Of a stretch of 11,394 nucleotides of DNA, positions 1 to 11,394 are shown one piece after another. The notes under the pieces were generated by a model that searched no databases, had not been told where the DNA came from, and worked only from the letters and a program-made list of their open reading frames with translations. This stretch comes from a virus (Duplodnaviria > Heunggongvirae > Uroviricota > Caudoviricetes), in the IMG/VR virus record IMGVR_UViG_2585427657_000001; one strand, given 5' to 3'. The translations under genes were made by a program, and so were the position numbers. Positions within the stretch are counted from its first letter, which is position 1, and each line of letters begins with the position of its first letter.

Positions 1-228
1 ATGCGTGAAGTATGGACAAGCACAGCAGCGAACGAGGAAGGATTCGAGCCGGACGTAATAGAGGCGGCACTTGCCCACGTCGACACCAACGAAGTTAGAC
101 GGGCATACAACCGGAGCAACTACATAGAAAAACGCATCGTGCTGATGCGCTGGTGGGGCGAATTTGTCGAGGCTGCGGCGACGGGCGTAACCCTCGCCAG
201 TGGTAAAAGGGGTATCCGAGCCGTGTAG
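1..228 (+). CDS. int: P4-family tyrosine integrase, C-terminal fragment; the 5' part of the gene lies upstream of the window
   Basis: Translation ...DVIEAALAHVDTNEVRRAYNRSNYIEKRIVLMRWWGEF... resembles the conserved C-terminal catalytic region of P4/CP4-57-type integrases (LAH...VRxAYNR...Y motif). Frame is open to position 1 and stops at 226-228. Confidence 0.8.
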   Translation: MREVWTSTAANEEGFEPDVIEAALAHVDTNEVRRAYNRSNYIEKRIVLMRWWGEFVEAAATGVTLASGKRGIRAV

Positions 229-3240: not shown

Positions 3241-4991
3241 AACTGGCACCGAACGTAAAACAGCAGTCACGCGGCATAAAACACAAAGGAACAGAAGTCA
3301 TTATTTTTGCGGGTAGTGATGCCTGGGCACACGCGAAACAATGGCAGGAACATGATGCGCGTATGGCCGGAGATAATGAGCCTCCTGTGTGGCTTGGGGA
3401 GCAGCAGTTATCAGAACTGGATAAGCTGCAAATTGTGCCGGAAGGCAGAAAATCCGTGCGCATATTCAGGGCCGGATATCTTGCGCCAGTAATGATAAAG
3501 GCGATTGGTCAGAAGCTGGCGGCGGCAGGCGTACAGGATGCAAATTTTTACCCTGATGGTATGCACGGTCAGAAGGTGGAGAACTGGCGCGAATATCTGG
3601 CCCGTGAGCGCCAGAATCTTTCTGATGGTCTGGTCATTGAGCTTCCGGTAAAGCAAAAGGCGCAACTTTCGCAGATGGCGGACAGTGAGCGCGCGCAGCT
3701 GCTTGCCGATCGCTTTGATGGCGTTTGCGTACATCCTGAAAGTGAAATCGTTCACGTATGGCGCGGCGGGGTATGGTGTCCGGTCAGCACAATGGAACTT
3801 AGCCGCGAAATGGTGGCGATCTATTCAGAGCACAGGGCCACTTTCAGCAAGCGCGTAATCAATAACGCCGTGGAAGCGTTAAAAGTTATTGCCGAACCAA
3901 TGGGCGAGCCGTCCGGCGATTTGCTGCCGTTCGCCAATGGTGCGCTTGACCTGAAAACGGGGGAATTTTCCCCGCACACGCCGGAGAACTGGATCACCAC
4001 GCACAACGGCATTGAGTACACGCCACCAGCACCAGGGGAGAACATCCGCGATAACGCGCCAAACTTTCATAAATGGCTTGAGCACGCAGCCGGAAAAGAC
4101 CCGCGCAAGATGATGCGTATATGTGCCGCGCTGTACATGATTATGGCGAACCGGTACGACTGGCAGATGTTTATTGAGGCCACCGGAGACGGCGGGAGCG
4201 GTAAAAGTACATTCACACACATAGCCAGCCTTCTGGCAGGGAAACAAAACACGGTAAGCGCTGAAATGACATCGCTTGATGATGCTGGTGGGCGTGCGCA
4301 GGTTGTCGGGAGTCGTCTTATCGTCCTGGCAGACCAGCCGAAATATACAGGCGAAGGAACGGGCATCAAGAAAATCACGGGCGGCGACCCCGTGGAAATT
4401 AACCCGAAATATGAAAAGCGTTTTACGGCGGTAATCAGGGCGGTGGTGCTGGCAACCAATAACAATCCGATGATATTCACCGAACGGGCCGGAGGTGTGG
4501 CACGTCGTCGGGTGATATTCCGGTTCGATAACATCGTAAGCGAGGCAGAAAAAGACAGGGAGCTACCGGAAAAGATCGCGGCTGAAATCCCTGTCATTAT
4601 CCGCCGCTTGCTGGCGAACTTTGCCGACCCTGAAAAGGCACGGGCTTTACTCATTGAACAGCGTGACGGTGATGAAGCACTGGCAATAAAGCAACAGACG
4701 GATCCGGTTATTGAGTTTTGCCAGTTCCTGAATTTTCTGGAGGAAGCACGCGGCCTGATGATGGGCGGCGGTGGCGATTCAGTGAAGTACACGACCAGAA
4801 ACAGCCTTTACCGCGTCTATCTGGCGTTTATGGCGTACGCAGGCAGGAGCAAACCGCTAAACGTAAATGACTTTGGCAAGGCTATGAAGCCAGCCGCGAA
4901 AGTTTACGGACATGAATATATTACGCGGAAAGTTAAAGGAGTAACGCAGACTAACGCAATAACAACAGACGATTGCGACGCGTTTTTATAA
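3237..4991 (+). CDS. Replication initiator: primase/helicase of the phage-plasmid P4 (alpha) / PICI Pri-Rep type
   Basis: 584-aa protein with Walker A P-loop GDGGSGKST and a following hydrophobic-Asp segment (SRLIVLADQP) typical of D5/P4-alpha-like primase-helicases. Sits between alpA and an iteron array as in satellite replication modules. Confidence 0.8.
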   Translation: MKLAPNVKQQSRGIKHKGTEVIIFAGSDAWAHAKQWQEHDARMAGDNEPPVWLGEQQLSELDKLQIVPEGRKSVRIFRAGYLAPVMIKAIGQKLAAAGVQDANFYPDGMHGQKVENWREYLARERQNLSDGLVIELPVKQKAQLSQMADSERAQLLADRFDGVCVHPESEIVHVWRGGVWCPVSTMELSREMVAIYSEHRATFSKRVINNAVEALKVIAEPMGEPSGDLLPFANGALDLKTGEFSPHTPENWITTHNGIEYTPPAPGENIRDNAPNFHKWLEHAAGKDPRKMMRICAALYMIMANRYDWQMFIEATGDGGSGKSTFTHIASLLAGKQNTVSAEMTSLDDAGGRAQVVGSRLIVLADQPKYTGEGTGIKKITGGDPVEINPKYEKRFTAVIRAVVLATNNNPMIFTERAGGVARRRVIFRFDNIVSEAEKDRELPEKIAAEIPVIIRRLLANFADPEKARALLIEQRDGDEALAIKQQTDPVIEFCQFLNFLEEARGLMMGGGGDSVKYTTRNSLYRVYLAFMAYAGRSKPLNVNDFGKAMKPAAKVYGHEYITRKVKGVTQTNAITTDDCDAFL

Positions 4992-5279: not shown

Positions 5280-5558
5280 ATGCACACTTCAGGGAAATTT
5301 AATAAATCACTCAAAAAACGCAGAGACAGAACAGAACCGAAATATCGCGCGTTAGACATGACAGAGCACGCTTTAAAGGTGGCAATCAGAACGATAGACC
5401 GACACGTAGGGGAAGGATACGCGAAGGAACATCCCGACCTGATAAGCGCATTCATGACCACAGCAGCGGCAAACTTTGCCACGCTGACAGAACGGGAGAT
5501 TGCCGAAGCGGAACAGGTAACAACCATCAACGTTAAAACCGGAGAGGTGGAATCATGA
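5280..5558 (+). CDS. Hypothetical protein (92 aa)
   Basis: Strong Shine-Dalgarno GAGGGGG before ATG 5280; stop overlaps the next start (ATGA at 5555-5558). No homology recognised. Confidence 0.55.
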   Translation: MHTSGKFNKSLKKRRDRTEPKYRALDMTEHALKVAIRTIDRHVGEGYAKEHPDLISAFMTTAAANFATLTEREIAEAEQVTTINVKTGEVES

Positions 5559-5997
5559 CAGCACAGATAGCCGCTTACGGGCGGCTGGTGGACGACCCGC
5601 AGGTAAAACAGACCAGCAAGGGCACACCGATGACGCTGGCGCGTATGGCGGTCCCCCTTCCGTGCAGCCAGGCAGATGACGGAACGGCGACGATGTGGTT
5701 ATCCGTCCTGGCATTTGGCAGACAGGCCGAAGCACTGGAAAGGCACCGCAAGGGTGAACTCCTGAGCGTGGCGGGCATTTGGTAAGCAGGCCGGGTAACA
5801 TGCAGATCAGCCAGTGGACTGGGCAGAACGGAGAAACGCGGCAGGGCTGGCAGGTTATCGCAGACAGTGTAATCAGTGCGCGAACGGCGCGACTGGGCGG
5901 CAAAAAAGGTCAACAGGGCCAGGCTACTGACGCGCTGAACAGGGCAAAACAACAGGCGGGGAATGATGATCCGTACGGGGATAACATACCGTTTTAA
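5555..5997 (+). pseudogene. ssb: Single-stranded DNA-binding protein (SSB)-like gene interrupted by a frameshift (frame change near 5777-5782)
   Basis: N-terminal ORF (5555-5785) ...TMWLSVLAFGRQAEALERHRKGELLSVAG resembles the SSB OB-fold (E. coli ...[28 protein letters not shown]). The downstream frame (ATG 5800 to 5997) continues with MQISQWTGQNGE... and ends DDPYGDNIPF, like the SSB acidic C-terminal tip (DDDIPF). Adding one T to the TTT run at 5778-5780 restores a continuous reading frame. Confidence 0.5.
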
Positions 5998-6012
5998 GCG
6001 ACGAGTGACAGA

Positions 6013-6035
6013 AGCCGGAGCAATCCGGCTTTTTT
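6013..6035 (+). terminator. Rho-independent terminator after the SSB-like gene
   Basis: Stem AGCCGGA / TCCGGCT with GCAA loop followed by TTTTTT. Confidence 0.6.
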
Positions 6036-6085
6036 ACGGGTCCTCCTGGCGGGGTGGGCCTGAACACGGGGCGGGAGGCGCGGAA
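6036..6085 (+). other. Degenerate cos-like remnant (third copy of the cos-associated repeat)
   Basis: GGGTCCTCCTGGCGGGGTGGGCC...ACGGGGCGGGAGGCGCGG parallels the 8502-8551 segment (GGGTCCTTCCCGGAATATGGACCC GTTACG GGGCGGCGACCT CGCGG), but the cosN 12-mer is mutated (GGGCGGGAGGCG). Confidence 0.4.
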
Positions 6086-6210
6086 AAAAGCGCATTTTTG
6101 TGATTTTATCGTCATCATCATCATGAGCGTAATTTATTGTTTTTAATTGTTTTGATGCAAAAAAGATGATGGTTGTGGTTAATTTTCGTTCGACATCTTT
6201 GCAGGCAGAT

Positions 6211-6275
6211 AGCCGGAGCAATCCGGCTTTTTTAAAAAAAGCCCGATAAGGTCAGAGGTGGCTTATCGGGCTTTT
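6211..6275. terminator. Tandem terminators: a second copy of the AGCCGGAGCAATCCGGCT hairpin, then a hairpin flanked by an A-run and a T-run
   Basis: 6211-6233 is identical to the 6013-6035 hairpin plus T-run; 6234-6275 is AAAAAAA GCCCGATAAG ... CTTATCGGGC TTTT. Confidence 0.55.
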
Positions 6276-6352
6276 GCATATGAGGCTTTTTGGTGCACTG
6301 ACACACATGATCGGGATAATCATTTCATAATTTGCAACGCAACTCAACATCA

Positions 6353-6401
6353 TTGCACAAAATGCAATCATGATTATAATCAGAGCTGGATGAACATCCA
6401 G
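6353..6401 (+). promoter_or_regulatory. Candidate promoter of the capsid operon with overlapping dyad operators
   Basis: TTGCAC (6353-6358) -N16- TATAAT (6375-6380); inverted repeat ATTGCA-caaaa-TGCAAT (6352-6368) over the -35; 16-bp near-palindrome CTGGATG-AA-CATCCAG (6386-6401) at the predicted transcript start; AAGAGGAA ribosome-binding site before ATG 6437. Confidence 0.5.
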
Positions 6402-6436
6402 TTATGATTTTTTAAGTCAAAGAGGAATTTCTTACT

Positions 6437-6643
6437 ATGGCTGAAGAGAAAAAAGGCGGTGTTTCGGTGTACATAAGCCCCGACATCGTGAAGGCGCTCA
6501 AGGAACGCCACCAGCAGAACGTAAAAGCAGGCATTGCGGCAGGACTTGATCCGCTGGCGATGGTTGAGCCGTCAACAGGCTGGCAGGTACGCTCCTATTT
6601 ACGCGCGGCGCTGGGCATAAATCAGACTCATGGGGGTGAATAA
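6437..6643 (+). CDS. Hypothetical protein (68 aa), translationally coupled to the major capsid gene
   Basis: Good Shine-Dalgarno; TAATG stop/start overlap with the capsid gene at 6641-6645. N-terminal VSVYISPDIVKALKERH could be a ribbon-helix-helix motif (weak). Confidence 0.5.
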   Translation: MAEEKKGGVSVYISPDIVKALKERHQQNVKAGIAAGLDPLAMVEPSTGWQVRSYLRAALGINQTHGGE

Positions 6644-7698
6644 TGGCAGTCAAAGCAATGGCACTTAACACACACCAGCTTTTCGCGTACCTGAATCGCG
6701 AGGATATTGCGGAATTTAAATTTAGTCCGCTGTTTACCGCGCTGTTTTTCCCGAACGTGGCGACATTCAACACGCAAAACATCATGCTGGATACCCTGGA
6801 CATTGAAGAAGTCACCATGTCGGCGTTTTGTTCGCCTATGGTGGGTAGCCAGGTTCAGCGCGATAAAGGGTACGAAACCAGCACGATTAAACCTGGCTAC
6901 ATGAAGCCAAAGCACGAAATCGATCCAACGAAAACCATCATGCGCATGGCTGGAGAAGATCCGGCACAGCTTAACGACCCTACCTATCGCCGTATGCGCC
7001 TGATTACTGGCAATATGCGCCGCCAGATAAACGCCATAAAAGCGCGCGTGGAATGGCTGGCGGTAAATGCGGTAACGACCGGAAAAAACATCATTGAGGG
7101 CGAAGGCATAGAGCGCTATGAAATCGACTGGAAGATACCGGAAAAAAACATCATAGAGCAGGCCGACGGGAAAAAATGGTCAGAGCAGGACAAAGAAACC
7201 CACGATCCAATCTATGATATCGAACTATACGCCGATCAGGCTGGTTGCCCCGCAAACGTCATGATTATGGGCGTTGAGGTATGGCGAACGTTACGCAGCT
7301 TTAAAAAATTCCGTGAGCTGTACGATCTTTCCCGTGGTTCAGAGTCCGCCGCAGAGCTGGCCTGTAAAAACCTGGGCGAAGTGGTGAGCTTTAAAGGCTA
7401 TCTGGGCGATATTGCCCTTATCGTCTATTCCGGCAAATACACTGACAGCGACGGCACAGAAAAATATTTCCTTGATCCTGATTTGCTGGTCCTGGGCAAC
7501 ACCAACAACAAAGGGCTGGTGGCCTATGGTGCGATTATGGATCAGGAAGCGGTAAGAACAGGCGCAACGCAAAACATGTACTACCCGAAAAACTGGATTG
7601 AGGACGGCGATCCGGCGATTGAGTACGTGCAGACGCACAGCGCACCGCAGCCGGTTCCGGCAGATATTCGCAAATTTGTTACCGTCAAAATTGCTTAA
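6643..7698 (+). CDS. Major capsid protein, phage lambda gpE family
   Basis: 351 aa; multiple blocks match lambda gpE as recalled: FKFSPLFTALFF (lambda FKFDPLFLRLFF), KPGYMKPKHEIDP (TPGYVKPKHEVNP), DPTYRRMRLITGNMR (DPAYRRRRIIMQNMR), WSEQDKETHDPIYDIELYA (WSKRDKSTYDPTDDIEAYA), LGDIALIVYSGKY (YGDVAIVVYSGQY), YYPKNWIEDGDPA (RYPKNWVTTGDPA), C-terminal FVTVKIA (FVSVQLA). Confidence 0.9.
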   Translation: MAVKAMALNTHQLFAYLNREDIAEFKFSPLFTALFFPNVATFNTQNIMLDTLDIEEVTMSAFCSPMVGSQVQRDKGYETSTIKPGYMKPKHEIDPTKTIMRMAGEDPAQLNDPTYRRMRLITGNMRRQINAIKARVEWLAVNAVTTGKNIIEGEGIERYEIDWKIPEKNIIEQADGKKWSEQDKETHDPIYDIELYADQAGCPANVMIMGVEVWRTLRSFKKFRELYDLSRGSESAAELACKNLGEVVSFKGYLGDIALIVYSGKYTDSDGTEKYFLDPDLLVLGNTNNKGLVAYGAIMDQEAVRTGATQNMYYPKNWIEDGDPAIEYVQTHSAPQPVPADIRKFVTVKIA

Positions 7699-7709
7699 CG
7701 GGGGATTCT

Positions 7710-8045
7710 ATGGACACTCCATACATTGAGTTATTTGCAGGCAGTCAGCAGGTATCCACGACGCTGGTACATTTTGCCGCTGATGCTGGCGTTATTCAGG
7801 AATTTACCCCGCTGATGCTGGCGGACAATGGCGAGTTTAAGCCGTGGGATGGTCAGGAATCTGGCAAGGCTGTTTATCTGACTTCGTACCTCGTGGACAC
7901 GTCAAAGCAGAAATCAGCACAGTGTTACAAGACGGGGATATTCAATATTGCCGCCGTTAACTGGCCTGAGAGCGTCGACACCGATGCGAAAAAATGCGCC
8001 GCCTTTGCGGGTTCTGGCGTATCCGTTCAGCCGCTGGCCCGATAA
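7710..8045 (+). CDS. Head decoration protein, phage lambda gpD family
   Basis: 111 aa; TPLMLADNGEFKPWDG (lambda TPLMLDTSSRKLVAWDG), CYKTGIF...NWPES (FYKSGTF...LWPEA), KKCAAFAGSGVSV (KKRTAFAGTAISI). Size matches gpD (110 aa). Confidence 0.8.
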   Translation: MDTPYIELFAGSQQVSTTLVHFAADAGVIQEFTPLMLADNGEFKPWDGQESGKAVYLTSYLVDTSKQKSAQCYKTGIFNIAAVNWPESVDTDAKKCAAFAGSGVSVQPLAR

Positions 8046-8057
8046 GCAGGGGGAACG

Positions 8058-8471
8058 ATGGCAACGAATGAAAGCATCATGGCGCTACCGCTGGCGAGTA
8101 AATTTAAAGCCGAAGCGCGGGCAATGGCTGACAGAGGTTTATCAACCTACGAGGCCGTATATCAACTCAACAAACTGGAAGAGCAGGACAAGCCGCGCGC
8201 TGATGCGATTATGGCGCTTCATGAGCATAAAGACTATCAGCCGCTGTTGCGTGCAATGGCAAACGTGCCTTGTATCGATGTTGATACGGCTAAAAACATC
8301 CTGAACATGACCATAGAGCAGGAACGCCCGAAGGTTGCACCAGAGCTTACCGCAGCCTTTGAAAACTTTATGGACATGCACAGCCCACAAACCGTATCAG
8401 CTGGCATGGCATACGATGGCAGAAACCCAGGCGATGACGGCGACATCGATCGCATACTGAAAACCATCTGA
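8058..8471 (+). CDS. Hypothetical protein (137 aa), last gene of the capsid operon, directly upstream of cos
   Basis: ORF with AGGGGGA upstream, followed by a terminator at 8478-8500. No motif recognised; position suggests a packaging or morphogenesis accessory role. Confidence 0.55.
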   Translation: MATNESIMALPLASKFKAEARAMADRGLSTYEAVYQLNKLEEQDKPRADAIMALHEHKDYQPLLRAMANVPCIDVDTAKNILNMTIEQERPKVAPELTAAFENFMDMHSPQTVSAGMAYDGRNPGDDGDIDRILKTI

Positions 8472-8477
8472 GACAAG

Positions 8478-8500
8478 GCCGGAGAAATCCGGCTTTTTTT
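8478..8500 (+). terminator. Rho-independent terminator after the capsid operon
   Basis: Stem GCCGGA / TCCGGC with GAAA loop and a 7-T run; variant of the hairpin at 6013-6035 and 6211-6233. Confidence 0.6.
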
Positions 8501-8501
8501 A

Positions 8502-8564
8502 GGGTCCTTCCCGGAATATGGACCCGTTACGGGGCGGCGACCTCGCGGTTTTTCGCTATTTATG
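8502..8564 (+). other. cos site 1: palindrome GGGTCC-N12-GGACCC, then lambda-type cosN (GGGCGGCGACCT at 8532-8543) and lambda-like proximal flank
   Basis: Sequence GTTACG GGGCGGCGACCT CGCGGTTTTTCGCTATTTATGA matches the lambda cohesive-end region as recalled (GTTACG GGGCGGCGACCT CGCGGGTTTTCGCTATTTATGAAAATTTTCCGG). No lambda-like R-site motifs are recognisable downstream. Confidence 0.7.
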
Positions 8565-8637
8565 AGCTTTTTCAGGGGGGTGGTGGTGGTTTTGTTGTTT
8601 GCTCTATCTTTATGAATGAAAAGGGAAAGATGCAAAC

Positions 8638-8675
8638 AATACACCAACCTGAAGCAGTAATTAAGTTGGTGTATT
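8638..8675. promoter_or_regulatory. Perfect 11-bp inverted repeat AATACACCAAC / GTTGGTGTATT (16-nt spacer) between cosN and the terS start; candidate cosB recognition element or operator
   Basis: Seen directly: 8638-8648 and 8665-8675 are exact reverse complements, ending 1 nt before ATG 8677. Confidence 0.4.
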
Positions 8676-8676
8676 A

Positions 8677-9219
8677 ATGAAATCGCACCTGATGAACAAA
8701 AAAAACATGGCGAAAAGCTGCCGTGTAAGTGCGACAGCGTTCGACAAGTGGGGAGTGACTCCCGTTGAACGTAAAGGCCGTGAGGCGTTTTACGATGTTG
8801 CCAGCGTGATAGACAATAGGGTTAACAATGCAATTAGCCAGCTTACAAACGACAAAGGCGATATTGATGATGATGAACTCTTACGAGTCAGGATCAGATT
8901 ACTGACAGCACAGGCGGAGGCGCAGGAACTTAAAAACGAGCGCGATCGCGGTGACGTGATTGATACTGAGTTTTGCCTGTACGCGCTTTCAAAGCTGGCG
9001 AGTCAGATTTCATCAATCATGGACAGCCTCCCGCTTACTATGCAAAGGAGCTTCCCACAGATTACCCCCGCCATGCTGGATAGGCTTAAAAGGGAAGTGG
9101 TTAAAGCCTGTAATGCCAGTGCCAGAGTTGCCGACAACCTCCCACAGATACTGGCTGATTACTTGAAAGAAACAACCGGAAACGTACCGGAAAAGTTGCT
9201 ACAGAAGAAAGGCGAGTAA
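8677..9219 (+). CDS. Small terminase subunit, lambda Nu1 family (start may be ATG 8692, giving MNKK...)
   Basis: LTAQAEAQELKNERDRGDVIDTEFCLYALSKLASQISSIMDSLPLTMQRSFPQI matches lambda Nu1 LTRAQADAQELKNARDSAEVVETAFCTFVLSRIAGEIASILDGLPLSVQRRFPEL; C-terminal LADYLKETTG matches LLSEYIEQSG; N-terminal MNKK matches Nu1 MEVNKK. Gene sits immediately downstream of a cosN, as in lambda. Confidence 0.85.
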   Translation: MKSHLMNKKNMAKSCRVSATAFDKWGVTPVERKGREAFYDVASVIDNRVNNAISQLTNDKGDIDDDELLRVRIRLLTAQAEAQELKNERDRGDVIDTEFCLYALSKLASQISSIMDSLPLTMQRSFPQITPAMLDRLKREVVKACNASARVADNLPQILADYLKETTGNVPEKLLQKKGE

Positions 9220-9239
9220 CAGACGCGCAATTATTGAAC

Positions 9240-9441
9240 AAAACTGAGAAACGACATGAAAGCGTCATAAATCGCCATTTTAGATGATTACCGTGTCGTT
9301 TCTTTTTATTGTGTATCTATTTAAAAACAAATAGTTATGTTCGAGAAGTACCGACATGCTTTTTCCAGAAAAATTTTCATAAACAGATAAAACCCGCGAG
9401 GTCGCCGCCCCGTAACGGGTCCATAATTCCAGGAAGGACCC
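9240..9441 (-). other. cos site 2 (inverted): lambda-type cosN (minus strand of 9399-9410) with lambda-like cosB (R3/I1/R2/R1-like segments) and upstream GGGTCC/GGACCC palindrome
   Basis: Minus strand reads GGGTCCTTCCTGGAATTATGGACCC GTTACG GGGCGGCGACCT CGCGGGTTTTATCTGTTTATGAAAATTTTTCTGG ...ACTTCTCGAACATAACTATTTGTTTTTAAATAGATACAC...AAAGAAACGACACGG...CATGTCGTTTCTCAG, which parallels the recalled lambda left end (TTCTTCGTCATAACTTAATGTTTTTATTTAAAATACC, AAAGGAAACGACAGG, CTGTCGTTTCCTTTCTC). Confidence 0.65.
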
Positions 9442-9475
9442 GACGACACCAGACAATCAGAACGATGGGTGCACA

Positions 9476-9757
9476 ATGACAGAAGCCGAAATACTGGGAT
9501 TAATCCGCCGTGCTGGTGGAATCAGCCAGCAGACTGACGAACAGGCCACGCAGCCGGACAGCGTGACAGCCGAAAATTATGCGCGTGTTGTTGCTGAGGT
9601 GATGCGCCGTGATGGTATCCAGCTTAATGATGTGGATATGCGCAACATACGGATCCGCGTTCTTGAAATGCTGGCCTACAATCGCCGCGTGGCACTGTAT
9701 CGGGAAACGGAGAAAATTACATACCACTGGAAGAAGCCGGAGCGGTTGCGGCGGTAA
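9476..9757 (+). CDS. Hypothetical protein (93 aa)
   Basis: ORF between cos 2 and the att repeats with protein-like composition. Weak ribosome-binding site; no homology recognised. Confidence 0.4.
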   Translation: MTEAEILGLIRRAGGISQQTDEQATQPDSVTAENYARVVAEVMRRDGIQLNDVDMRNIRIRVLEMLAYNRRVALYRETEKITYHWKKPERLRR

Positions 9758-9758
9758 C

Positions 9759-9927
9759 TGGTTGATATTTTCGAAATTCGCCAGCGGCGAACATCGGGGA
9801 AACCAGCCTAACCCGTTGATATTTTCGGGAACCTCAAATTGAGGAGGTCGGAAACATAACCCGTCATATTCTGGATGCTGATAATTACCACGCAGCCCAT
9901 TAAGGCCTAACCCGTTGATTCTTTCGG
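9759..9927 (+). repeat. Direct repeats of a roughly 20-bp motif (CCTAACCCGTTGAT(A/T)(T/C)TTTCGG) at the island/chromosome junction; candidate attR and integrase-binding repeats
   Basis: Copies at 9760-9773 (partial), 9807-9828, 9856-9874 (degenerate) and 9906-9927; the 3' part of the motif (TCTTTCGG) recurs inside the phoQ 3' end at 9941-9948. Confidence 0.5.
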
Positions 9928-9933
9928 ACATAT

Positions 9934-11394
9934 TTATTCATCTTTCGGTGCAGAATGCTGGCGACCAAAAATCACTTCCATCCGCGCACCGCCCAGCATG
10001 CTCTCTCCGGCGACGATTTTACCCTCATATTGCTCGGTGATTTCGCGGGCTACCGCCAGCCCCACACCTTGCCCAGGGCGTAAAGTATCAACCCGTTGAC
10101 CACGGTCGAAAATGACCTCTCGCTTGCTTAATGGAATACCGGGGCCATCATCCTCGACCACAATATAGAGATGCTCGTCGGTTTGCCTTGCAGAAATTTC
10201 GACAAATTCGAGGCAATATTTACAGGCATTATCCAGCACATTACCCATCACCTCGACAAAATCGTTCTGCTCACCAACAAAGCTGATCTCTGGCGAAATA
10301 TCGAGAGAGATATTGACCCCTTTGCGTTGATACACTTTGTTCAGCGCCGAGGTGAGATTGTCCAACAGTGGGGCGACCGGATGCAGCTCGCGGCTAAGCA
10401 ATGTCCCGCCGCGCATACTGGCACGATGCAGGTAGTAGCCAATTTGCTGTGAAATGCGGCTGATTTGCTCCAGCATTACCGGCTCAGCATCACTGACGCT
10501 CATCTTCTCACTACGCAGAGAACGCAGCGTACTTTGCAGCACCGCCAGTGGCGTTTTCAGACTATGGGTCAGGTCGGTGAGCGTCGTACGATATTTGTCG
10601 TAACGTTCGCGTTCACTTTTTAACAGTCGGTTCAGGTTTCGTACCAGACTGGTCAGTTCTCGCGTTGTGGCTGGATTGAGCAATTCACGGTTATGTTCTT
10701 CCAGTTCGCGGACTTCTTTTGCCAGGGCTTCGATGGGGCGTAAACTCCACCAGGCGGCGACCCACAGCAGCGGGATCACTAACAGCAGATTGGCTGAGAG
10801 CACATAGATAAACCAGCTCCAGACCATATAGGAACTTTTTAGCTCCACCGGAATGGTATCCACCACCACAATGGTTAACTTTGGCATCCGCGATGTTGCC
10901 GGGTAGACGTTTACCGCCACCGAGTGGGTCATCTCCGCGTCGTCATCATCTTCCCGCACTTCCTGCAACTGTTGCTGTATCGAATGATCTCCACTCAGCA
11001 AGAGGCTGGTATCGTTAACATCCGCTTCAATTTCATGAAAACCATTCGATTTCAGCCAGTCAGGCTGGATCATCTTCATCAGCCAGGGCACGTCACGTTG
11101 CGCCCATAAAAGCTGCCCGTTCTCATCATAAATTAGTGTCATCGTGGGGCTTTGCTTGTCGATATTTTCGGGTAACTCGACATGCAACTTATTGTTTTCC
11201 CACTTCGCAAGGGTATAGAACAGATTGCTCTCGCCACGTAACAGCCGAAACGTGGTTTTATCGAAACTGACGCTATAACCGATCAGCGCAACCATTCCGT
11301 AGGCAAGCGAAAGCACCAATACTACTGCTGCCGTTGCTAACAGAAAACGTACCCGCAGCGAGAGCGGGAAAAAAAGATGCAGTAATTTTTTCAT
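9934..11394 (-). CDS. phoQ: Sensor histidine kinase PhoQ (PhoP/PhoQ two-component system), complete
   Basis: 486-aa product recognised as E. coli-type PhoQ ([68 protein letters not shown]...; periplasmic acidic patch EDDDDAEM; H-box [14 protein letters not shown]; G-box DDGPGI). Start codon is the last three bases of the window; phoP would lie beyond the right edge. Confidence 0.97.

Follow-up and report, generated by a model that had tools for sequence, protein, structure and literature searches.

Two facing lambda-type cos sites around a Nu1-type small terminase gene in a chromosomal island of Escherichia coli

The 11,394-nucleotide stretch analyzed here (IMG/VR virus record IMGVR_UViG_2585427657_000001; "the window" means this whole stretch at its full length) carries a phage-inducible chromosomal island (PICI) of Escherichia coli in which two lambda-type cos sites, inverted with respect to each other, enclose a gene for a small terminase subunit (TerS) of the Nu1 type. 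The best explanation of the region is that it is the packaging module of a PICI of the EcCICFT073 family, with the Rpp adaptor of that island replaced by a complete small terminase. The window displays two cos sites with readable specificities: one (cos1) for the N15-like TerS of the island itself, the other (cos2) a copy of the lambdoid phage type. By analogy with the experiments published on EcCICFT073, the whole probably serves as a dual-specificity packaging cassette.

Two parts of this picture are already published, namely the dual cos sites (in EcCICFT073) and the existence of islands with terS, and our results overturn nothing. In the literature searched we found no description of the two specificities of this variant, the phage identity of cos2, the modular combinations of cosB or the inversion polymorphism, and, on the inversion of PICI cassettes or the later treatment of PICI cosB, nothing beyond three of the papers cited here. 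The authors of the EcCICFT073 work left open the reason for two cos sites (PMC6092414, PMC6739421); the window gives a direct handle on a question that the field has thus stated as open, and it holds a full TerS exactly at the place of Rpp, as expected if Rpp evolved from such a TerS. Both questions become testable with defined helpers, e.g., PhiR12-type phages for the cos2 of EcCICFT073.

The inverted cos pair and its published precedent

The original prediction, made from the sequence without database searches, had placed a cosN on each strand within an inverted repeat of roughly 50 bp and about 95% identity, and a Nu1-like gene between the two, preceded by a perfect 11-bp inverted repeat. 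All of these elements hold. The 12-nt cosN (GGGCGGCGACCT) is matched exactly at both positions (coordinates of these and the other features are given in Table 1), where 0.05 matches would be expected by chance; three matches, the third with one mismatch, were reached in 0 of 200 shuffles. The repeat arms (8502-8551 and 9391-9441), each of which begins with the cosQ core GGGTCCTT, are identical at 48 of 51 positions (94.1%), and the repeat is longer than had been proposed, extending over about 71 nt (8502-8572 and 9370-9441) with 63 of 72 positions identical (87.5%). In CP022686, a better assembly of the same strain (E. coli Nissle 1917), the arms differ at only 1 position across the first ~53 nt. 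A single substantial open reading frame (ORF), terS, lies between the arms, and the 11-bp repeat (8638-8648 and 8665-8675) stands just 5' of its start codon. Like lambda cos, both sites have a cosQ, an identical cosN and an I2-like spacer, and cos2 has three R repeats as well; unlike lambda cos, cos1 carries no lambda R motifs and cos2 abuts the 3' end of terS, with no Nu1 gene after it.

The third cosN-like sequence (GGGCGGCGACCC, one mismatch) lies at 4379-4390, within the primase gene, and is kept in related islands; neither a cosQ nor a cosB accompanies it, and it probably arose by coincidence in coding sequence.

The window is 100% identical to the Nissle 1917 assembly CP007799. The genes of the island are, in order, an integrase fragment, an AlpA-like regulator, Icd-like genes, DUF4222, a D5/P4-type primase, a single-stranded DNA-binding protein (SSB), a lambda E-like major capsid protein, a D-like decoration protein, a 137-aa ORF, terS and a 93-aa ORF, followed by phoQ. 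Better Nissle assemblies have the island (99.5% identity) at tRNA-Pro beside yejM, with a full integrase. In the window the integrase is cut to 210 nt (window 1-228), and the junction of the island with phoQ (9928-9934) is contiguous in CP007799 alone; this assembly measures 5.44 Mb vs. about 5.05 Mb, shows obvious duplication artefacts, and has, in a nearby prophage, four identical copies of that prophage's cos region within 6.5 kb. This error-prone assembly has probably produced the copy of the island seen in the window; the cassette interior is 100% identical in CP022686. The inverted repeat as such was also considered as an assembly artefact and this was ruled out, because 595 of 5426 complete E. 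coli genomes, some of them O157:H7, O55:H7 and O145:H28, have the cassette interior at >=80% coverage, and hundreds of independent genomes have the same arrangement. A TerS-bearing island is found, then, in roughly a tenth of complete E. coli genomes, O157:H7 and the probiotic Nissle 1917 among them. This bears on predicting which prophages can mobilise islands from a strain used as a live therapeutic.

The gene order (integrase, alpA-type regulator, primase and replication genes, capsid homologues and cos, in about 10-15 kb) is that of the EcCICFT073 type, as are the two cos sites with helper-like cosQ and cosN; in place of an Rpp adaptor after cos1 there is a full-length Nu1-type TerS. EcCICFT073 carries a published cos1 and cos2, both functional (Fillol-Salom 2018 ISME J PMC6092414; 2019 Mol Cell PMC6739421): each of them, cloned on a plasmid, confers phage-mediated transfer (PMC6092414, PMC6739421). 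As for the island itself, deletion of cos1 lowers its transfer, deletion of cos2 raises it and the double deletion abolishes it (PMC6092414), and RppA and the helper TerS form a complex that recognises the cosB of cos1 (PMC6739421). In the EcCICFT073 stretch we find a plus-strand cosN at 15559, rppA at 15660-16094 and a minus-strand cosN at 16309, the pair lying inside a 77-nt inverted repeat, and the sequences of the two sites agree with those printed as cos1 and cos2 in the 2019 supplement (PMC6739421). A facing, inverted cos pair around a specificity gene is a trait of this family, tested experimentally in EcCICFT073. The original prediction could not tell whether such an arrangement had been described: the pair, around rppA, has been published, and a statement about its orientation was not found in the searched text or supplements of the EcCICFT073 papers. 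The finding is less new than had been supposed, since EcCICFT073 has the same inverted pair flanking rppA.

The window thus shares with EcCICFT073 the island family, the gene order and the facing cos pair, with a private cosB by the gene start and cos2 after the stop codon. The two islands differ in three respects: the middle gene (a 180-aa Nu1-type TerS with a TerL-binding C-terminal part in the window, not a 144-aa Rpp adaptor), the cosB of cos1 (N15-like in the window, of the CACCACCACCAC type in EcCICFT073) and the cosB of cos2 (PhiR5_1/phage 4-like in the window, PhiR12-like in EcCICFT073). The islands of strains IHE3034 and 18098 (EcCIIHE3034 and EcCI18098) are reported to "encode TerS" (PMC6092414), and the 2018 supplement gives the PMV-1 island as the same element as EcCIIHE3034 (PMC6092414). 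The cassette stretch of the PMV-1 island is 99.7% identical to the window; unlike the window's island, EcCIIHE3034 and EcCI18098 occupy a different chromosomal site (cspD-clpS). We found no description of the cos sites or the helper of either island. A more distant parallel is offered by the pathogenicity islands of Staphylococcus aureus (SaPIs), in which the satellite supplies its own small terminase, redirecting the large terminase of the helper, or carries helper cos sites (SaPIbov5 and SaPIbov4 are cos SaPIs, the latter with two putative cos sites; cited in PMC6092414). SaPIs, however, are Gram-positive and unrelated in sequence, use headful (pac) packaging in the TerS cases, and have no lambda-type cosB logic.

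The island TerS and the private cosB of cos1

The terS product matches Pfam Phage_Nu1 (PF07471) with 83 bits, where the curated cut-off is 30, and, over residues 1-174, PHROG 57 (terminase small subunit) with E 3e-53. The protein can be aligned from one end to the other with the Nu1 proteins of lambda (35% identity) and PhiR5_1 (41%), and its alignments with the lambda, PhiR5_1 and N15 TerS span both ends, including the C-terminal part that binds the large subunit. Among 50,697 phage records the closest protein is N15 gp1 (46%), yet the likeness is unevenly spread: in the DNA-binding domain (residues 1-52) the identity to N15 gp1 is 59%, vs. 29-31% to lambda-like Nu1 proteins, and over residues 96-166 it is 56% to PhiR5_1 Nu1, vs. 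35-41% to the others. Judged by these identities, TerS is a mosaic of an N15-like DNA-binding domain and a PhiR5_1-like C-terminus. The ratio of nonsynonymous to synonymous substitution rates (dN/dS) is 0.09-0.23 among five island copies, and terS is therefore under purifying selection. No terL is present in the island, next to terS or elsewhere, so that the helper must supply the large terminase.

We considered whether this protein might be a variant of Rpp, and rejected the idea on its length, its C-terminal domain and its 18% identity to RppA in a multiple alignment. A search of solved structures with TerS returned chance matches only, and a scan of a species-representative genome collection with the single TerS protein gave no confirmed relative; the relatives described here were taken from exact-protein contig look-ups.

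At the DNA level, the core of cos1 is 81-93% identical to the cos cores of lambda, PhiR5_1, phage 4 and PhiR12, and its matches to phages are confined to this cosQ-cosN core. The cosB downstream of it is only 45-55% identical to the cosB of the same four phages, which is the baseline for unrelated cosB; the lambda R-site motifs, which the original prediction had likewise not seen there, are indeed lacking. What the region contains instead is a motif of its own in three copies: R3' (GGTGGTGGTGGTTTTGTTGTTTGC; 8579-8602, bp 48-71 from cosN1), an inverted copy, R2' (8632-8649, bp 101-118), and a direct copy, R1' (8665-8675, bp 134-144). Within R3', the pattern GGTGGT...GTTGTTGTT lies at bp ~50-69, at the position of the R3 site of phage N15; N15 has GTTGTTGTTT at bp 51-60 from its cosN, and mutagenesis places the N15 R3 at bp 48-60 (PMC9026076).

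The conservation of this motif points to an R3-type site near bp 48-65 that is matched to the adjacent TerS. The GTTGTTGTT-type motif is kept with this type of TerS in the E. coli islands and in Enterobacter and Citrobacter satellites, the flanks of which have diverged, and it is present also in E. coli HZDC01, whose cosN differs. It is mainly because motif and TerS type occur together that we read cos1 as the putative cognate site of the island TerS, and the comparisons support a private, N15 R3-like cosB directly upstream of the island's own TerS. The likeness to N15, which provides the closest phage TerS (both overall and in the DNA-binding domain) and an R3 motif resembling that of the island, has its limits: the cosN of N15 is a variant one (GGGCGGCGTCCG), its R site is single and its gene 1 starts at bp 89, whereas the island motif is about 9 bp farther from cosN and has the extra inverted and direct copies, and terS starts at bp 146.

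The 11-bp inverted repeat falls within R2' and R1'. A role as a conserved regulatory hairpin was considered and set aside: in the PM4-5 and JNE islands its right arm has decayed, whereas the left arm and R3' are preserved. By its sequence, the repeat reads better as the R2'/R1' pair.

The Enterobacter and Citrobacter relatives of TerS (contig positions about 5850-6513) are 58-60% identical to it and are encoded by satellites inside the major capsid gene of a lambdoid prophage. In this they resemble helper-embedded satellites such as 11capE (bioRxiv 10.1101/2022.07.18.500453), although the published 11capE is said to be without terS (bioRxiv 10.1101/2022.07.18.500453). Among their genes are E- and D-like ones, and their cos1-type site shares the cosB motif of the window; unlike the window they have this one cos only, and different replication genes, an AAA_25-type replication protein replacing the D5-type primase. 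FRG and DUF3892 genes are their cargo.

A phage-type cosB at cos2 and two possible packaging routes

The second site resembles phage cos sites far beyond the core. Over 151 nt, cos2 is 74.5% identical to lambda cos (E 7e-16), well above chance, as had been claimed, and the match to the cos of PhiR5_1 is closer (84%, E 2e-36). Its cosB taken alone is 70% identical to that of PhiR5_1, 61% to that of lambda and 68% to that of a phage 4-type lambdoid prophage resident in CFT073 and Nissle, against a baseline of 45-52%. The lambda-like R3, R2 and R1 that the original prediction had read here are borne out: three repeats with the core TGTCG(G/T)T stand at 9342-9358 (R3, bp 53-69), 9291-9305 (R2, inverted, bp 106-120) and 9244-9261 (R1, bp 150-167), within about 2 bp of the lambda geometry (about bp 53-70, 108-124 and 149-166). 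For I1, the site for integration host factor (IHF) between R3 and R2, a consensus scan that missed lambda's own I1 gave a loose match only. In its 12-nt cosN, a cosQ about 30 bp upstream, an I2-like spacer and three R repeats, cos2 agrees with a lambda-type cos, and it differs in what follows: in place of a cognate Nu1 gene it adjoins the terS stop codon tail to tail, the stop codon ending at bp 192 from cosN2, where lambda Nu1 begins at bp 191.

The phage relationships of cos2 differ from island to island. In the window, R3 and its counterpart in the resident lambdoid prophage of Nissle and CFT073 have an identical core (TGTCGGTACTTCTCGAA, 17 nt), and the cos of this prophage is the same in both strains. 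In EcCICFT073, in which the published work could identify no phage cosB (PMC6092414, PMC6739421), cos2 (16095-16345 of the EcCICFT073 stretch) and the cos of the PhiR12 phages share 93.3% identity across 179 nt, the ATGTCCGGTT repeats included; the matching PhiR12_1 cos (1501-1679 of the compared stretch) lies between its Rz and Nu1 genes. Because of this identity, PhiR12-type phages are candidate helpers specific for the EcCICFT073 cos2. The islands of O157 and JNE181771 keep terS and cosB1 (97% identity) and have all three R repeats of cos2 changed together to an AGATCC type. In the island of strain Ch1 (1604-2434 of the compared stretch), an Rpp-type cos1 is paired with a cos2 whose cosB is of the N15 type, and both inverted cosN copies share one G-to-T variant (GGGCGTCGACCT), which suggests either that one arm has converted the other or that the two have adapted jointly to a helper whose cosN is of this kind.

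If the island does carry a dual-specificity cassette, the repeat arms would be the parts that every lambda-type cos shares with the large terminase of the helper, namely cosQ, cosN and I2. On the cos1 route, the island TerS would bind the N15 R3-like repeats of cosB1 through its N15-like winged-helix domain, and its PhiR5_1-like C-terminal part would recruit the helper large terminase, leading to a cut at cosN1 and rightward packaging. On the cos2 route, the near-complete cos of helper type would let the helper's own TerS-TerL start packaging leftward. In lambda, packaging does not terminate at a cos that is reached from its cosB side. Since a cos in the wrong orientation is not used for termination, either route would yield the whole island genome from concatemers, ending at the next copy of the same site. 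Packaging by either a helper Nu1 at cos2 or the island's own TerS at cos1 had been suggested in the original prediction; at the level of sequence, the private cosB of the one and the helper-type cosB of the other are both present, and from the EcCICFT073 experiments we infer their use, that is, the pairing of proteins with cosB sites, the cutting of either cosN and any benefit of two routes.

Several observations weigh against this reading. No helper is known for the TerS-type PICIs of E. coli; the C-terminal part of TerS shares only 35% identity with the TerS of the resident prophage, the R2 and R1 of cos2 differ from the repeats of that prophage, and a promoter scan of 8300-9800 found no sigma-70 promoter-like site for terS. 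In EcCICFT073, deletion of cos2 raised transfer by lambda and phi80 (PMC6092414), so that cos2 is not beneficial with either of these phages, and single-cos relatives exist (in Enterobacter, Citrobacter and E. coli HZDC01), from which it follows that cos2 is dispensable for the terS module. EcCIIHE3034, moreover, was barely transferred after induction with mitomycin C (Table 1 of PMC6092414). This last is not a clean test and may not reflect the intact element, because the marker lies inside cosB2: a 2018 IHE3034 primer matches window 9231-9273, which puts the cat marker between R1 and R2 of cos2.

The deletion result and the single-cos satellites would also fit cos2 as a near-neutral relic, left tail to tail with the specificity gene by recombination with a helper phage, with cos1 and TerS alone of importance; that cos2 ends just where a phage Nu1 would begin (bp 192 vs. 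191) looks like the scar of such an event. Against a relic stand the intact cosQ, cosN and I2 of every dual-cos island examined, three R repeats that are internally consistent within each cos2 type, 93% identity to the cos of an extant phage in EcCICFT073, and, in Nissle, an R3 core identical to that of a co-resident prophage. The EcCICFT073 cos2 also supports plasmid transfer, and the residual transfer of that island is lost only on double deletion (PMC6092414). We regard a relic as unlikely. Another use of a helper-type cosB that matches real phage cos sites would be as a decoy, which draws the helper terminase to island DNA, where it is titrated or miscuts, any transfer through cos2 being secondary. 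PICIs of this family do interfere strongly with helper packaging by way of the terminase (PMC6739421), but in EcCICFT073 the interference maps to the binding of TerS by Rpp and needs no DNA site (PMC6739421), and one cos copy per island genome makes a weak sink. The sequence itself holds nothing that separates a decoy from a genuine initiation site, and on these grounds we give the decoy very little credence. The dual-specificity cassette remains our preferred account of cos2.

Inversion of the cassette and neighboring features

The arms of the repeat are nearly identical, and for that reason would occasionally recombine; such recombination may invert the cassette, or swap cosB blocks with phages and other islands. 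The original prediction had named rearrangement as one possible role of the repeats, and natural genomes bear it out. We built the junction predicted for an inversion across the repeat and searched for it in complete E. coli genomes: for the terS cassette the inverted junction is present at full length in 5 genomes, vs. 494 with the native junction, and for the rppA cassette the inverted junction is present in 15. The annotations of PM4-5 and JNE181771 accordingly have terS on the strand opposite to the capsid genes, and one inverted-rppA genome that we checked has an identical RppA at the same phoQ site on the opposite strand. Alignment puts the exchange point within the cosQ-cosN core. Sorted by junction identity and insertion site, the genomes with an inverted terS cassette form two groups, and one junction identity is found among the 12 of 15 inverted rppA genomes listed; these three groups point to about three inherited inversion events, every one of them represented in genomes that were sequenced independently. 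Inversion of the cassette is real, rare and stable. Both cos sites are complete after it, because each cosQ-cosN half on the backbone is joined to the other cosB.

It could be asked whether the inverted pair is a programmed DNA switch, the flip of which regulates expression of terS or rpp, or the polarity of packaging, perhaps by way of terminase cuts. Both orientations do occur naturally, as in Hin/Gin/Cin-type systems, for the terS and the rppA cassettes alike and with the exchange inside the cosQ-cosN core, and cohesive ends of this geometry should, from cos chemistry, permit re-ligation either way. The inverted form is rare, however (5 vs. 494 genomes), its three groups fit about three inherited events and not frequent switching, and no invertase gene of the Hin/Gin/Cin type lies in or beside the cassette. 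With both cos sites complete after inversion, no functional change is evident, and ordinary homologous recombination across a repeat of ~50-70 nt yields the same product. We find a programmed switch hardly credible.

A different proposal, which we hold to be doubtful, is that the cos pair is an exchange and inversion device that needs no recombinase: the helper terminase would cut both cosN and free the cassette with two identical left-type cohesive ends. The cassette might then re-anneal either way, or be swapped for the cassette of a co-replicating phage or island; TerS or Rpp and the two cosB, and with them the specificities, would be shuffled as a unit among satellites and helpers, and one island could use two classes of helper.

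Table 1. Features of the cos-terS cassette and its flanks (positions in the window).
Feature	Position	Strand	Basis
137-aa ORF, last gene of the capsid block before cos1; like the scaffold-like C-terminal part of lambda-type head protease	8058..8471	+	PHROG matches
Hairpin and T-run (GCCGGAGAAATCCGGCTTTTTTT), terminator-like, at the boundary of backbone and left arm	8478..8500	+	read from sequence
Left repeat arm, core of cos1: cosQ 8502-8509, cosN 8532-8543, I2-like spacer 8544-8572	8502..8572	+	
Putative private cosB of cos1 (R3', R2', R1')	8579..8675	+	motif repeats; N15 R3 position
terS, 180 aa, Nu1-type small terminase	8677..9219	+	Pfam, PHROG
Helper-type cosB of cos2 (R3, R2, R1)	9244..9358	-	alignment to phage cos
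Right repeat arm, core of cos2: I2-like spacer 9370-9398, cosN 9399-9410, cosQ 9434-9441	9370..9441	-	
93-aa ORF, first backbone gene past cos2	9476..9757	+	PHROG 1561 E 1e-55

On either side of the cassette the backbone stays in place. The terminator-like sequence to the left of cos1, which the consensus scan did not call, remains with the backbone in islands with an inverted cassette, and the 93-aa ORF past cos2, which is conserved in EcCICFT073, keeps its orientation when the cassette inverts. The 137-aa ORF matches PHROG 1999 (E 4e-65) and also PHROG 53, head maturation protease, in that family's C-terminal part (E 2.7e-9), and occupies the equivalent position in EcCICFT073. It ends a block (6437-8471) of lambda E-like capsid, D-like decoration and scaffold-like (protease C-terminus) proteins that includes no portal, protease or large terminase; in EcCICFT073, deletion of the E and D homologues left transfer and interference both unaltered (PMC6092414).

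Elsewhere in the window, the SSB gene (5555-5997) is split into two ORFs, annotated in CP007799 as a frameshift and an internal stop, and is intact (423 nt) in CP022686; the split likely reflects a sequencing error. The island's right end holds a direct repeat of about 23 nt (GCCTAACCCGTTGATATTTTCGG type) in three copies, within 9752-9927 at spacings of 54 and 99 nt, the last of them ending where the match to other genomes stops (9928); these could be attachment-site or recombinase arm-type repeats.

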